Sequence record: PX994957.1
Direction: 5' to 3' (one strand)
Length of the DNA stretch: 64,000 bases
Source of the DNA: a phage
Shown: positions 2,155 through 42,041 of the stretch, piece after piece
How positions within the stretch are numbered: position 1 is the stretch's first letter
Layout of the letters: every line of letters starts with the position of its first letter
Notes under the pieces: model-generated
Seen by the model: only the letters and a program-made list of their open reading frames with translations
Database searches by the model: none
Told to the model about the DNA's origin: nothing
Position numbers and translations under genes: made by a program

Positions 2155-2613
2155 TTAATATGCCTGCAAAACGAATTTAAAGTTATCAGCCAACATACGG
2201 TTCATTTCTTCAAGTGTTTGATACTCAGAATGATGATTACGAGTAAACGCTAAAGCTAACTGTCCTTTTCCAAATCCCGTCGTCAGAGGTTTCATCTTAG
2301 AAGCAGGCAGATAAAACACTGTGTATGGAACATTGTTATTTGCAATAGTACGTGCAAGCTGAGACCGACGTTGACGAATATGACTTAGAACTGCACTGAA
2401 TCCTTGCTTAGAACGCTGATTACCTACATAAAATCGTGCTGACACACATGGATTACTAAATGGACGACCATCTAATTTACTTACTAAAAAGTAAAATCCA
2501 GGTTTAGATAAAATATCTTTATGCGGAGTTCCCAAAAACCACTCACCGCCCTTGATTGTACCAATAACAGTAGCACCTGCATCATTCAGATCAGTAACAG
2601 TCATATATTTCAT
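2155..2613 (-). CDS. ndd: Ndd nucleoid disruption protein
   Basis: 152 aa from ATG 2613 (SD GAGGAAATTAAT); T4 Ndd is 151 aa; position between denB and 52; track ORF N-terminal 16 codons are read-through. Confidence 0.75.
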
Positions 2614-21377: not shown

Positions 21378-21518
21378 TTACAATTTAGCGGCTTTCCAGA
21401 GTTGTTCAATAATCTCTTGGTCTATTTCTTTAGTTATTTCATTACGTAATAAAGCAGTAAGGGCTTTCGCCCTTTTCTTATTCAACTTTTTGAGTTGACG
21501 TTTATTTAAACAAGCCAT
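21378..21518 (-). CDS. possible 46-aa basic protein; may be non-coding
   Basis: ATG overlaps gp56 stop (TAATG) but no SD; contains GAAA-loop hairpin (21460-21475) and MotA-box-like TGCTTTA. Confidence 0.3.
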   Translation of the reverse strand: MACLNKRQLKKLNKKRAKALTALLRNEITKEIDQEIIEQLWKAAKL

Positions 21519-22036
21519 TAATAACCTCGGTCTTGACGTGCGAAATTTTCAGCATTTTTCAGGTAATAAAGTTTAAAGATTTCTTCTGCTGTAAGACCAA
21601 GACCTTGGAACATGTTCAGAACGAAATGGAGAATATCAATCATTTCAAACTTAATTTCCAGTTGGTCTTGTGGAGACAAATCAGTAATCAGAGTTTCACG
21701 GCGTTCACCATGCTGCGACTTCCAAGGCTTCCATACAGCAGATGCATCTTTTTCACCATTGCTCATACCACCAAGAGAAGTCAGAAGTTCACGGAATTCA
21801 TCATCAATATAATCTTTCTGATTACGCAACCAATCAACAACTTCACCGGCAGTAGCCAAGTCATCAGGATGACGATTATATTCAGGTTTATCTTTAGCTA
21901 AACGAATTTGCAGAGATTTCTGCATGTCAAGCATTACCTGCAGCGGGTCTTTTTCATCACCGAGAATATCCCAATATTCATTTTGAGCTTTATCAGCGCC
22001 TTCGATCAGTTGACTACATTCGTTGAAATGTGGCAT
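21518..22036 (-). CDS. 56: gp56 dCTPase/dUTPase (MazG-like)
   Basis: 172 aa (T4 gp56 171 aa); ATG 22036 with SD AAAGGAAAAAT. Confidence 0.88.
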   Translation of the reverse strand: MPHFNECSQLIEGADKAQNEYWDILGDEKDPLQVMLDMQKSLQIRLAKDKPEYNRHPDDLATAGEVVDWLRNQKDYIDDEFRELLTSLGGMSNGEKDASAVWKPWKSQHGERRETLITDLSPQDQLEIKFEMIDILHFVLNMFQGLGLTAEEIFKLYYLKNAENFARQDRGY

Positions 22037-26786: not shown

Positions 26787-27131
26787 TTAAAAGAATTTAA
26801 ACTTTTTCTTTGACCTTTTATTAAATGCATCTTGTAGTTGCATTGTAATACATTTTTCTACATGAGGAGCTAACTCAGCTTTTCTTTTTTGGTCAAGAAC
26901 AGCAAAGTCCATTACGACTTTTCCATCAACCCAATCTAATTTTGTCACATACACAATATGTGTAGAACCATCTTCTAGTTTAATGACAATCTCCTGGATA
27001 ACATTTTCCATGGCAGATTTAATTATCTTAAGAGATTCATTAAAAAGACGTTCTTTTCTTTCTTCTTCCCCCTCCGAAGAGGGGGATTCATCGATAATTT
27101 CTAGATCTAAATCTAAATCATCTTTATTCAT
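26787..27131 (-). CDS. 40: gp40 head-vertex assembly chaperone
   Basis: 114 aa from ATG 27131 with SD GGAAGAA (track GTG start gives 120 aa); position between uvsX and 41. Confidence 0.65.
   Translation of the reverse strand: MNKDDLDLDLEIIDESPSSEGEEERKERLFNESLKIIKSAMENVIQEIVIKLEDGSTHIVYVTKLDWVDGKVVMDFAVLDQKRKAELAPHVEKCITMQLQDAFNKRSKKKFKFF
27068..27085 (-). other. GC-rich UUCG-loop hairpin inside the gp40 coding sequence
   Basis: CCCCCTC CGAA GAGGGGG perfect 7-bp G/C stem in an otherwise AT-rich region; encodes SPSSEGEE. Confidence 0.6.
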
Positions 27132-28305
27132 TAAATTCTTCCATATCACTTAACTGCTCGAGGTCAGTTTCTAAATCAGCTGCTGATTTACTTTTACTTT
27201 CTGGAGATTTAAATTTTTCAACCTTTGAGTTAATCAATTCATCAACTTCAGCTTCAACAATTTCATTACTATCAATAGCACCTAACTGATAAGCACGTTT
27301 AATAGCATCTCGGAATGGTTGATGCTTAAATAAAGGACCCCAGAATGTAGTGCAGTTGGTATCTTTTGCACGCCAAGATTTTTCTTCGCGAATCATCTCG
27401 CCGGTTTCTTCGTCAAGAAATTCACGAGCATACCAACCATTCTTAGGTTTTACTACAAATCCTAATTCTAGAGCCATATCTAACAATCCAGAATAAGGAT
27501 CGATACCACCGTCAAATTTAACATCAATAAAGAATTTACTTTTTTCTTTAACGGTACGAGATTTTTCTACATTTAGAACAAATTGATACCCCTGAAGATC
27601 AGAACCATCTTTAATCTGACGCTTACCGATAATGAATACAGTATCAGCCGAATACATTACGCCTGTACCACCTGTCATCACGGTTTTACTAAACATTTCA
27701 ATTGTTTCAATTGTATGGTTAACCGCAACACATGGAATATTTTTAATGCTAAAATAAGGAGTAACAATACGAAATAATGACTTCAGTGATTTAGCACGAG
27801 TCATATCTGCCACAGATTTTTCATTCAAGGCGTCTTCCGTTTCTTTCTTAGAAGCCATATTACCGATTGAGTCGATGAATACAATAACCTTTTCACCACG
27901 CTCAATAGCTTCAAGTTGATTCACCATATCAATTTTCAGCTGTTCAACTGACTGAATTGGCGTATGAATTACTCGTTCCGGGTCAACTCCCATGGATCGC
28001 AAATAAGCTGGAGTAATACCAAATTCGCTATCATAGAATAGACAAACCGCGTCAGGATATTTGTTCAAATATGCCGCAACCATAGTCAAAGACATATTTG
28101 ATTTAAAGTGTTTAGAAGGCCCTGCGAAAATAGTTAAACCAGACTGCATACCGCCATCAATCGCACCAGAAATAGCAATATTCAGCATTGGAATTTTTGT
28201 ACGGATTACATCCTTTTCATTAAAGAATTTAGATGTAGTCAGTTCAGCAGTCATTTTAGAAGTGGAAGCTTTAATCAAACGGGATTTTAAATCTGCAATA
28301 GACAT
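27124..28305 (-). CDS. uvsX: UvsX recombinase (RecA-like)
   Basis: 393 aa (T4 UvsX about 391 aa); Walker A GPSKHFKS; RecA-fold region. Confidence 0.92.
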   Translation of the reverse strand: MSIADLKSRLIKASTSKMTAELTTSKFFNEKDVIRTKIPMLNIAISGAIDGGMQSGLTIFAGPSKHFKSNMSLTMVAAYLNKYPDAVCLFYDSEFGITPAYLRSMGVDPERVIHTPIQSVEQLKIDMVNQLEAIERGEKVIVFIDSIGNMASKKETEDALNEKSVADMTRAKSLKSLFRIVTPYFSIKNIPCVAVNHTIETIEMFSKTVMTGGTGVMYSADTVFIIGKRQIKDGSDLQGYQFVLNVEKSRTVKEKSKFFIDVKFDGGIDPYSGLLDMALELGFVVKPKNGWYAREFLDEETGEMIREEKSWRAKDTNCTTFWGPLFKHQPFRDAIKRAYQLGAIDSNEIVEAEVDELINSKVEKFKSPESKSKSAADLETDLEQLSDMEEFNE

Positions 28306-28384
28306 TCATTTTTTTTCCATAGGCATCATTATATTTTCCTCACTGGTTAAAGATAGAGTAATTATAACACAATAAATTTAGGCA

Positions 28385-29227
28385 TTAATCAACTGCTATT
28401 GGATGAATAGCATTAAACTTATGAAATGCTTCTGATTTTTCTTTACGTGAAACGCACATGCGAAGAACCTTTAATGGCTCGTCTTCTTCACCCAACGATT
28501 TTCGTTTTTCAATATTCGACGTTTTCCAACGAGCTTGCTCTGGAAACTCTCTATTGATTTGCTCAAGCGCTCTATTATGTTTAGAATTACTACGAATTGA
28601 ACTGCACCCGCCAGGAGCTTGTGCTTTTCCAGATACAACCAGATATTTGAACAAGGCCAAATGCGGATAACCTTGATTAATTAAATTGAGAAATGCATAC
28701 ATATCTTCGCACAAATCAATTTTTCCATACCCAATTTGTTCTGTCGTAAGTTTTCCAAGGTCATACCATGTATTCGTGAATCCATATGAATTTTCACGAT
28801 AATTACCCCAAGATGAAGTAATTTTAAAAATAGGTAGACGAGCATGACCATGATAATACCCGCAATCCATGGCATCTTCGACGTATTGAATCAATTCATA
28901 GAACTGTTCATGAGTCAATTGATTAACTTTATCCACACAACGACGGTCATCTCTTTTTCGCATTGAACTCATACGAATAGTAGTATCATCGTCAATCATC
29001 CAGATTCGTTGACCTGCATACATATCAGTAATTGCTTTACGAGTACCGGCAATTCCGTTTACATCATCAGGAATAGTTATAATTTTAGCTCTAGACCCAT
29101 AGGCATCATAATAAGCTTTTTCTTCATGTTCACGCACTACAATATGGGGTTCATAATCAGTCGGAAACATATCAAGGGCAGAAACTGCCCCGACACGCTG
29201 ATAACTTGGAATTACGAATTGAATCAT
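28385..29227 (-). CDS. GT-A-like glycosyltransferase at the beta-gt position; candidate beta-alpha glucosyltransferase
   Basis: 280 aa from ATG 29227 (ATGA overlap with gene 42 stop); DxD-like MIDDDTTI; too short for T4 beta-gt (351 aa, GT-B). Confidence 0.6.
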   Translation of the reverse strand: MIQFVIPSYQRVGAVSALDMFPTDYEPHIVVREHEEKAYYDAYGSRAKIITIPDDVNGIAGTRKAITDMYAGQRIWMIDDDTTIRMSSMRKRDDRRCVDKVNQLTHEQFYELIQYVEDAMDCGYYHGHARLPIFKITSSWGNYRENSYGFTNTWYDLGKLTTEQIGYGKIDLCEDMYAFLNLINQGYPHLALFKYLVVSGKAQAPGGCSSIRSNSKHNRALEQINREFPEQARWKTSNIEKRKSLGEEDEPLKVLRMCVSRKEKSEAFHKFNAIHPIAVD

Positions 29228-29964
29228 TTCCACTCACCTTTATAGTCTTTTTTCACAATATGAGTTTCGCCAGTATTCCACCAATGATCAACCAAGTAAA
29301 AATGACGAGAATATACATGAAGACTTCCGACATTCCATATAATAGAACCTGCTTTATACTGACGAGTTGAATCGCCGGCATTCAAATCAGATACTAATTT
29401 ATCTAATACGTATTTTTGCCATGCATAATCATTACGGAATCCGAAGACTACGTCATTTGAGCGCATGCTTACTACTGCATTGACTTTCTTATCACGAATC
29501 AGGTACTGTACTGTATTAGTACACATGAAATCTGACATGCCATCTTTATTGTAGTCAAATTGCATGGATGGACGAGTATAAATCATGATACCACGTCGAG
29601 AATCAGGATTTTGACCAAGTTCAGCTAAACACATATCATACTGAGCATAGTTATCTTCTGACCAAATAGCCCAACCATAATTCGAGTTAATTTCGCCTTT
29701 AGAAGATGCTACCTGCTGCCAAATCTTTGGTGTTTCACCTGGAATATCTTTAACAAACAAGCTCTTAGATTTATACCATTCAAGTTCGCGCTGAATGTAT
29801 TCATCATTAAGAGCGCCAAAAATAAACGGTTCATCTGCTACAAATGATGCGCCAATAATTTCAATAGTTTTAACACCAGTTTTATCAACTACGAAATCTT
29901 TTTCCTTTAATGCAGTTCCCAAATAAAAACGGATTTCTTCAACTGTCATAGAGTCATTAATCAT
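29224..29964 (-). CDS. 42: gp42 dCMP hydroxymethylase
   Basis: 246 aa, equal to T4 gp42; thymidylate-synthase-like fold. Confidence 0.92.
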   Translation of the reverse strand: MINDSMTVEEIRFYLGTALKEKDFVVDKTGVKTIEIIGASFVADEPFIFGALNDEYIQRELEWYKSKSLFVKDIPGETPKIWQQVASSKGEINSNYGWAIWSEDNYAQYDMCLAELGQNPDSRRGIMIYTRPSMQFDYNKDGMSDFMCTNTVQYLIRDKKVNAVVSMRSNDVVFGFRNDYAWQKYVLDKLVSDLNAGDSTRQYKAGSIIWNVGSLHVYSRHFYLVDHWWNTGETHIVKKDYKGEWK

Positions 29965-29971
29965 TTAAACC

Positions 29972-30121
29972 TCAATTGATGCATTCATATTTAAATTGTA
30001 ACAGTAATAAACCCCACCCTATGATAAGAGTTGGAATCATAGCAGGAACTGTTACGCTATAGTATATACTTATTATAACCATCAAGATTAAAAGCAACAC
30101 TGTTATAATTTTGCTTTTCAT
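29972..30121 (-). CDS. 49-aa membrane peptide
   Basis: ATG overlaps imm stop (ATGA), SD AGAAGGA; MKSKIITVLLLILMVIISIYYSVTVPAMIPTLIIGWGLLLL; absent from ORF track. Confidence 0.4.
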   Translation of the reverse strand: MKSKIITVLLLILMVIISIYYSVTVPAMIPTLIIGWGLLLLQFKYECIN

Positions 30122-30369
30122 TCCTTCTCTCTGATGATAATTACTTGATTTGGTTGTGCGGATTTTTTAGTTTCACCCGCAATTGACCAAATAAATGTAA
30201 TAAACCAACCAATAATTGACCAGTTAAACAGTAAAGATGTGAAAAAGATTCCTACTGTTGATTTTGACCCACGCATCAAGGCGATGAACCATGGAAGCAT
30301 GTATATAATAATAGCCAACACACCTGAAACTAAAACCATAAAAATTGAACCTGCTACTAAAGTTTCCAT
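30118..30369 (-). CDS. imm: Imm superinfection immunity membrane protein
   Basis: 83 aa, equal to T4 Imm; two hydrophobic helices; between 42 and 43. Confidence 0.82.
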   Translation of the reverse strand: METLVAGSIFMVLVSGVLAIIIYMLPWFIALMRGSKSTVGIFFTSLLFNWSIIGWFITFIWSIAGETKKSAQPNQVIIIREKE

Positions 30370-30376
30370 GCTTTCC

Positions 30377-30757
30377 TCACTTAGTCAAATTTTTTACACA
30401 TGAATTATAAGAATTCACTACATACTCCATCGGAGCATTTTTACCAGTACGCCATTGGTAATTATTAGCCCAATTAGCCCAAAGTTCGGCGCAGTAGTTT
30501 TCAATTTTTTCTTCGCGTGTAATTACATCTGAATTACGATATGCTTGAGCAGATTCATCTGGACGAATAGCTTCGTCAAAATTTGCCTGCATTTGTTCTA
30601 CTGTTTGCTTTGGAGCTTCTTTATAACACTTGACATTAGGATTATAAAACTTGCTTGAACAGTTTACAATTTTTCCTACATCAGACTGATTTACTACCGG
30701 TCCTTGAGCCACACAACCAGTAAGACCTAATGCAATAACCAAAATAGCGATTTTCAT
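30377..30757 (-). CDS. lipoprotein (imm.1-type)
   Basis: 126 aa; signal peptide + lipobox MKIAILVIALGLTGC; SD GAGGAAATTATT. Confidence 0.6.
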   Translation of the reverse strand: MKIAILVIALGLTGCVAQGPVVNQSDVGKIVNCSSKFYNPNVKCYKEAPKQTVEQMQANFDEAIRPDESAQAYRNSDVITREEKIENYCAELWANWANNYQWRTGKNAPMEYVVNSYNSCVKNLTK

Positions 30758-40822: not shown

Positions 40823-40840
40823 AAAGGGCCGAAGCCCTTT
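40823..40840 (-). terminator. UUCG-loop hairpin after a-gt
   Basis: AAAGGGC CGAA GCCCTTT overlapping a-gt stop, followed by U/A-rich tract. Confidence 0.5.
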
Positions 40841-42041
40841 ATTTTGTAATAATGTCAAACTGTTCTTTAAAGCAGAAGCTTGAATCTTGATGCTGATACA
40901 AAAATTCATAAGCTTTTTCGCGTTCGCGGTCATAAAGAGTTCGGTCAGATGACAGTTCTTTAATACGTTCAAATGTTGATTCCATGTCATTTTCATCAAA
41001 CCAAATGATACCGCTATCATGCGAGGTCAAAGGAGTATTATCAACACGGAATTTTAAATTTTCGCCAGTAGATTTCCAAAATACCGGAATTGTTCCACAT
41101 GCACCAAGCTCGAGATGAGTATATTCTAAAGAACGTTGTAGATATTTTTTGTCCAACTTACTCAGCTGATAACCAAATCCGGATTTACTCATACGTTCAA
41201 GCATTTCGCTATTTACATAACGGTCAAGAATTTGCGTTGGCAAATTAGGAGCAATTTTAATTTGGTCTACTTGATGAAGACGATAATACTCGTATGGAAT
41301 TCCTTTTTCTTTAATAGGAATGAACGCTGGAGAACGTTCCAGACCTTCCATAATAGTACTTAGTCCTGCAGGTTTAAGATGTTTTTCATGAAAATCAAAC
41401 ATCTGATAAAAACCTTTCCATGTAGTCGTACGACCAATCCAACGGTTAACATTCATGTTAATTTCAGAAACATCTTTCCAGTAGGTTGATCGAACCTTCG
41501 CAATATCCATAGGAGGCTGAAAGTTATATACTGTCGGTGCTTCTTCAATATCATCAAACAGAGAAACAGTTTCTGGATACCATTCTTTCATCAGAACTTT
41601 ATTAAAATCACCATTATCAGAATGGCTAAAAATAACATCAGCTCGACGAACAGTTTCTTCTAATCCCAAATTTCGGCGCAAAGAAAGAGAAGAATGGTCA
41701 TGTTGATAAACTACAACACGAACCGAAGGTTTAATGTTATCAATAATTTTTTTATAGTTATTAATAGTGTCTTCTTCAACTGAAGTAGCAGGAACTGAAT
41801 TGATAATTAGAATATCACAATCATTTACCAGCTTAAGTGTTTTATCATATTCTTTTGCCAATAAAACCGGAATTGAAAATGATTTATAATCATGCGCGCA
41901 ATTACGAGTAAATGATTTATCTTTAGCATAAACCAAAGTCACTTCATGACCATTTTTAATAAACCAATCACGTTGCTCGAGTGAGAATTTTGTTACACCA
42001 CAACCTTCAAGACCTCGAGCCATAAAAATACATACTTTCAT
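40839..42041 (-). CDS. a-gt: alpha-glucosyltransferase
   Basis: 400 aa, equal to T4 a-gt; N-terminus ICIFMARGLEGCGVTKFSLEQRDWFIKNGHEV as recalled. Confidence 0.92.
   Translation of the reverse strand: MKVCIFMARGLEGCGVTKFSLEQRDWFIKNGHEVTLVYAKDKSFTRNCAHDYKSFSIPVLLAKEYDKTLKLVNDCDILIINSVPATSVEEDTINNYKKIIDNIKPSVRVVVYQHDHSSLSLRRNLGLEETVRRADVIFSHSDNGDFNKVLMKEWYPETVSLFDDIEEAPTVYNFQPPMDIAKVRSTYWKDVSEINMNVNRWIGRTTTWKGFYQMFDFHEKHLKPAGLSTIMEGLERSPAFIPIKEKGIPYEYYRLHQVDQIKIAPNLPTQILDRYVNSEMLERMSKSGFGYQLSKLDKKYLQRSLEYTHLELGACGTIPVFWKSTGENLKFRVDNTPLTSHDSGIIWFDENDMESTFERIKELSSDRTLYDREREKAYEFLYQHQDSSFCFKEQFDIITK

Follow-up and report, generated by a model that had tools for sequence, protein, structure and literature searches.

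An intact gene between uvsX and gene 42 of a Tequatrovirus, very probably the orthologue of the T2/T6 beta-alpha-glucosyltransferase

The window analyzed here is a stretch of 64,000 nucleotides of one strand from a phage (sequence record PX994957.1). Between the uvsX recombinase gene and gene 42 lies a 280-codon gene, ba-gt, whose features are collected in Table 1. A sequence-only reading had already placed a 280-aa open reading frame at this position, without giving its strand, and had noted that its start overlaps the gene 42 stop as ATGA; both observations hold, with the gene lying on the minus strand. The gene 42 homolog upstream encodes 246 amino acids of the thymidylate-synthase family and is annotated as the dCMP hydroxymethylase gene 42 in T2, T4 and T6, with a product 98% identical to the gp42 of T2/T6 and 95% identical to that of T4. 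Downstream, uvsX follows after a gap of 79 nt. Elsewhere in the window, a 172-aa open reading frame (21518..22036) has a Pfam dUTPase_2 match of 28.7 bits; its position is that of T4 gene 56 (dCTPase/dUTPase), which would add a further part of the hmC pathway.

Table 1. Coordinates of ba-gt, its sequence features and the associated genes in the window
Feature	Position	Strand	Remarks
ba-gt CDS, beta-glucosyl-HMC-alpha-glucosyltransferase, TAGT family, GT-A fold	28385..29227	minus	843 nt, 280 aa
ba-gt stop TAA	28385..28387	minus	
Last ba-gt codons (…HPIAVD-stop)	28383..28407	minus	24/25 nt match to T4 relic, E 2e-6 pairwise
ATGA, gene 42 stop overlapping ba-gt start	29224..29227	minus	identical junction in T2 and T6
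Shine-Dalgarno AGGTGA	29234..29239	minus	6 nt upstream of ATG, within gene 42 3' end; direct sequence reading
R11 codon	29195..29197	minus	family-invariant; His in T2 (CGT to CAT)
DDD, D79-D81, DxD metal/nucleotide-sugar motif	28985..28993	minus	directly after strand beta4 (E74-78 in model)
E174-D175 (CEDMY)	28703..28708	minus	D175 invariant in 114 sequences
gene 42, dCMP hydroxymethylase, hmC precursor maker	29224..29964	minus	adjoins ba-gt upstream; Pfam Thymidylat_synt
uvsX recombinase	27124..28305	minus	Pfam T4_UVSX_C and RecA; locus marker, outside the pathway
a-gt, DNA alpha-glucosyltransferase	40839..42041	minus	400 aa; PF11440, E 9e-237

The listing of open reading frames extends the minus-strand frame to 28385..29233, which gives 282 aa from a GTG, and the ATG at 29227 (29227..29225) gives the 280-aa product. 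The identical ATG is annotated as the start of ba-gt in the T2 and T6 (AP018814) records. The GTG (29233..29231), two codons upstream of the ATG, was rejected as an alternative start because it lies directly 3' of the Shine-Dalgarno sequence, sharing its last base, and because it is annotated in no record. The ba-gt frame is not a chance one, since 475 phage records hold it at a nucleotide identity of at least 90%; plus-strand frames of 40-78 aa inside the gene were taken as mechanical antisense frames without support. The ATGA overlap, together with a ribosome-binding site inside gene 42, suggests that ba-gt is co-transcribed with gene 42 and that its translation is coupled to that of the hydroxymethylase. 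Scans of 28000..30400 gave no signal for promoters (9 promoter-like sites, 10.7 expected) or terminators (1 terminator-like site, 1.3 expected). On the minus strand, ba-gt codons 13-18 (29175..29191) contain a hairpin rich in GC, GGGGCAG-TTT-CTGCCCT, with a T-rich stretch behind it, which does not exceed the chance level. Its sequence varies only in the 5' stem arm, where a single base is C in the window and A in both T2 and T6.

The encoded protein is almost certainly the orthologue of the T2/T6 ba-gt (alias g-gt, ggt or TAGT), the glucosyltransferase that places the second glucose on DNA. Megablast matched the gene to 475 phage records (identity 90-99%), where the usual annotations are beta-glucosyl-HMC-alpha-glucosyltransferase or beta-alpha-glucosyltransferase. 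The protein is 100% identical to that of Citrobacter phage PhiZZ6 and 98-99% identical to those of T2, RB6, RB32, AR1 and wV7. By BLASTP, 277 of its 280 residues agree with T2 ba-gt, and about 99% of the aligned residues agree with both T6 records, which bears out the earlier suggestion that this might be the T2/T6 enzyme (UniProt entries Q06717 and Q06718; PMC6024577). The genes of T2 and T6 likewise have 280 codons, the gene 42-uvsX locus, the ATGA overlap and a-gt as partner. Nothing we could read in the sequence speaks against this orthology.

Profile searches point to the same family. The protein passed Pfam PF20691 (TAGT) with 39.1 bits against a gathering threshold of 27.5 (E 9.7e-10, profile positions 2-205 of 205), and PHROGs assigned it to phrog_842 (6e-89). 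NCBIfam holds no model for ba-gt and none for T4 b-gt, and no sequence similarity was found between ba-gt and a-gt. The family is named after its association with TET/JBP dioxygenases. In the window phage it is instead gp42, working on the nucleotide, that would supply hmC, and ba-gt would act on a sugar already attached to the DNA, not on the base. The annotation is settled for the window; ba-gt is an already known, intact gene, ordinary for a Tequatrovirus, and it brings nothing new for the field, because gene, fold, distribution and product have all been published.

A sequence search of the PDB with ba-gt matched no chain, and no TAGT structure has been solved. The fold was approached by modeling. 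A first AlphaFold2 model from 10 homologs was mediocre (pLDDT 69.6) and already matched GT-A enzymes. A profile search of 1.84 billion representative proteins then gave 2143 family members at E<=1e-3, of which 114 were aligned, and a second model from this alignment (pLDDT 94.9, pTM 0.92) gave GT-A matches again. As modeled, ba-gt consists of one GT-A nucleotide-sugar transferase domain, whose Rossmann-like alpha/beta/alpha architecture matches solved GT-A structures. The GT-A-like character proposed in the sequence-only reading is therefore borne out by the predicted structure, which reproduces the published AlphaFold3 result for the T6 protein, where the fold was likewise GT-A and was placed as sister to GT2 (Ramirez-Chamorro et al., NAR 2026, PMC13216743). 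The inverting GT-A enzymes of the GT2 family (SpsA, TarP, AvpGT and the BcsA catalytic domain) are only 7-15% identical in sequence to ba-gt, whose acceptor, unlike theirs, would be a glucosylated DNA base.

The DxD-like MIDDDTTI motif that the earlier reading had pointed out is present at residues 77-84 (28976..28999). Its DDD is invariant in 10 homologs; among the 114 aligned members D80 is invariant, and D79 and D81 are conserved in at least 90%, as are R63 and R212. The other invariant residues of the alignment are R11, D175, G186 and G207, and the window protein has all of the family-invariant positions. By analogy with other GT-A enzymes, the DDD would bind a divalent metal and the UDP diphosphate, and the beta1-alpha1 loop would touch the nucleotide through R11. 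For the catalytic base expected in an inverting GT-A enzyme, D175 is the candidate, on the model of the ED motif in GT2 enzymes.

The pathway in which ba-gt would act is drawn mostly from published work on T2, T6 and their relatives, to which the present analysis adds the fold and the conserved residues. In those phages gp42 produces hydroxymethyl-dCMP, a-gt places alpha-glucose on hmC, and ba-gt forms gentiobiosyl-hmC with a beta-1,6 linkage (PMC13216743; PMC6024577). The transfer from UDP-glucose to alpha-glucosyl-hmC and the occurrence of gentiobiosyl-hmC in DNA are known for T2/T6 (PMC13216743, PMC11078745). Both acceptor-side partners, a-gt and gp42, co-occur with ba-gt in the window. By this pathway, hydroxymethyl-dCMP made by gp42 would supply hmC that enters DNA during replication, and a-gt, a GT-B enzyme, would move glucose from UDP-glucose to hmC in alpha linkage. 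Then ba-gt would add a second UDP-glucose-derived glucose to the 6-OH of the alpha-glucose with inversion of the anomeric configuration, giving beta-1,6-glucosyl-alpha-glucosyl-hmC (gentiobiosyl-hmC). Deletion of ba-gt from T6 removes the second-glucose enzyme and raises sensitivity to the Brig1 glycosylase, with ~75% of cytosines presumed by the authors to be alpha-glucosyl-hmC only (PMC11078745), and the DNA of T6 delta-g-gt is likewise exposed to the deglucosylase BapA (bioRxiv 10.64898/2026.02.25.707755). The role given to ba-gt in the literature is one of counter-defence, gentiobiosyl-hmC being no substrate for Brig1, an alpha-glucosyl-hmC glycosylase, or for BapA.

About 5% of hmC is gentiobiosylated in T2 and about 72% in T6, a classical result, and since the two enzymes are about 98% identical, the extent of gentiobiosylation is not readable from sequence. 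Lesions were nevertheless observed in the ba-gt genes of both reference phages. T2 carries R11H at 2531..2533 of its stretch (L001, NC_054931), a change common to all the T2 records listed and to SV76. Within a 301-nt stretch, it is the sole difference of T2 from its nearest wild relatives AdolfPortmann, KAW1E185 and teqskov. We tentatively suggest, at somewhat less than even odds, that R11H may explain the low gentiobiosylation of T2; no statement to this effect was found in the literature searched. Of the two T6 records examined, MH550421 has a TAG amber at ba-gt codon 10 (3951..3953 in L003), and its annotated CDS starts at Met20 (261 aa); AP018814 has lost 3 nt in frame, which leaves DD in place of DDD (about 3735..3743 in L004). 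Sequenced laboratory stocks of T6 may not all make gentiobiosyl-hmC. In contrast to T2 the window gene keeps R11, and in contrast to the T6 records it keeps Q10 and DDD; relative to these stocks it is the undamaged consensus form. These lesions, together with the relic in T4 described below, may be of use to laboratories that rely on T2 and T6 as references.

The DNA of wild relatives gives a guide to what such a gene does. By HPLC/MS, ten of ten wild Tequatroviruses with a-gt and TAGT contain gentiobiosyl-hmC; it makes up about two-thirds in seven of them, and the other three (Durham EL, BGP and Geo) have hmC, alpha-glucosyl- and gentiobiosyl-hmC at 1:2:2 (PMC13390438). One of the seven, QOTSP, has a gene 98.5% identical to that of the window. 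Since about 40-67% of cytosines are gentiobiosyl-hmC in close wild relatives, and since the window protein has consensus residues at all the sites damaged in T2 or T6, we predict that the genome is gentiobiosyl-rich, like that of T6, and free of beta-monoglucosyl-hmC. The expected bases would be hmC, alpha-glucosyl-hmC and gentiobiosyl-hmC, with no beta-glucosyl-hmC. This chemistry would govern sensitivity to host defence: the DNA would be shielded from Brig1 and BapA, and gentiobiosylated DNA is still a target of GmrSD, a type IV enzyme.

The alternative that survives best, although we consider it unlikely, is that ba-gt is present but weak or silent, as in T2 (~5% gentiobiosylated), and that the DNA is mostly alpha-monoglucosylated. 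The partner a-gt of the window is indeed the T2/RB allele, with 398 of 400 residues identical to T2 and 91% identity to T4 and T6, and should the ratio be set by the allele or expression level of a-gt and not by ba-gt, one would expect a T2-like phage; the intermediate Durham phages could be taken in the same sense. The intact frame with every family-invariant residue, including the R11 that is lost in T2 alone, and the two-thirds gentiobiosyl-hmC of most measured wild Tequatroviruses argue against it. The window phage joins a T2-type a-gt allele to a ba-gt with R11 and thus offers a natural means of telling apart two explanations of T2, one by ba-gt R11H and the other by the a-gt allele.

Far less probable is a TAGT-family enzyme of another specificity, using a different sugar donor or accepting bare hmC or beta-glucosyl-hmC. 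The family of 2143 representatives is large and varied, its specificity as a whole is undefined (PMC13216743), and homologs with 48-66% identity occur together with b-gt, not with a-gt (PMC6024577); such distant homologs, beside b-gt (CC31/S16/PS2-type) or standing alone, may work in this way. Yet the window protein is 99-100% identical to the T2/T6/RB-type enzymes and its genome also has a T2-type a-gt, which makes an altered specificity very improbable, and the relatives with the same a-gt and TAGT pair are those in which gentiobiosyl-hmC was found (PMC13390438). In CC31, Merlin, S16, STP4-a and Muldoon, a b-gt homolog (~50%) was observed beside a ba-gt/TAGT homolog (48-66%) between uvsX and gene 42. 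This arrangement, already noted in distant T4-like phages (PMC6024577, PMC13216743), implies that their TAGT may extend beta-glucosyl-hmC or have some other specificity.

That ba-gt might be a diverged or truncated T4-type beta-glucosyltransferase of GT-B fold, beta-glucosylating bare hmC directly, is hardly credible: only the shared position between gene 42 and uvsX speaks for it, the proteins have no sequence similarity (best local BLASTP E 0.28 over 10 residues), the predicted fold is single-domain GT-A and not two-domain GT-B, the relatives of T4 b-gt form a separate set of 126 records, and the window and T4 cease to be homologous ~15 nt ahead of the gene 42 stop codon, the homology returning within uvsX. 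A tblastn search with T4 b-gt likewise found no match at E<=1 within the 64-kb window (of a ~167-kb genome), and homology of ba-gt to T4 b-gt was rejected on these results. The orthologue of the T2/T6 enzyme and T4 b-gt (PDB 1JG7) are alike in genomic slot, UDP-glucose donor, inverting beta stereochemistry and protection of hmC-DNA; T4 b-gt differs in acting on bare hmC and not on alpha-glucosyl-hmC.

As the sequence-only reading had stated, T4 carries the 351-aa b-gt between gene 42 and uvsX, the place that b-gt takes in the b-gt-encoding records inspected. In T4 this rare gene is accompanied by the homing endonuclease gene segA, of which no homolog was found within the 64-kb window. Between b-gt and segA, T4 also retains a relic of the end of ba-gt (NC_000866 24238..24262; 4239..4263 in L002). 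Taken together, the relic and the points at which homology breaks suggest that an ancestral ba-gt gave way to b-gt in the line leading to T4, and that segA was inserted immediately downstream.

The distribution of the two genes was also compared. At an identity of at least 90%, ba-gt is found in 475 records and T4-type b-gt in 29; ba-gt is common to most T4-like coliphages, and T4 itself is the exception. Consistently, a-gt with TAGT has been described as the norm, the T4 pair of a-gt and b-gt being limited to six close relatives (PMC13216743), and the ba-gt type accounts for 12 of 14 RB phages (PMC6024577). The earlier placement of the phage in a T2/T6 group is therefore apt for the predicted type of DNA chemistry and weak as phylogeny, given a gene found in so many records. 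The alleles of a-gt and ba-gt assort independently among T-even phages, because the a-gt of the window is of the T2/RB type, while T6 pairs a T4-like a-gt with ba-gt. Over 24 kb of the window, the best matches are the wild isolates Sa45lw, Sf23 and CAM-21, at about 98%.
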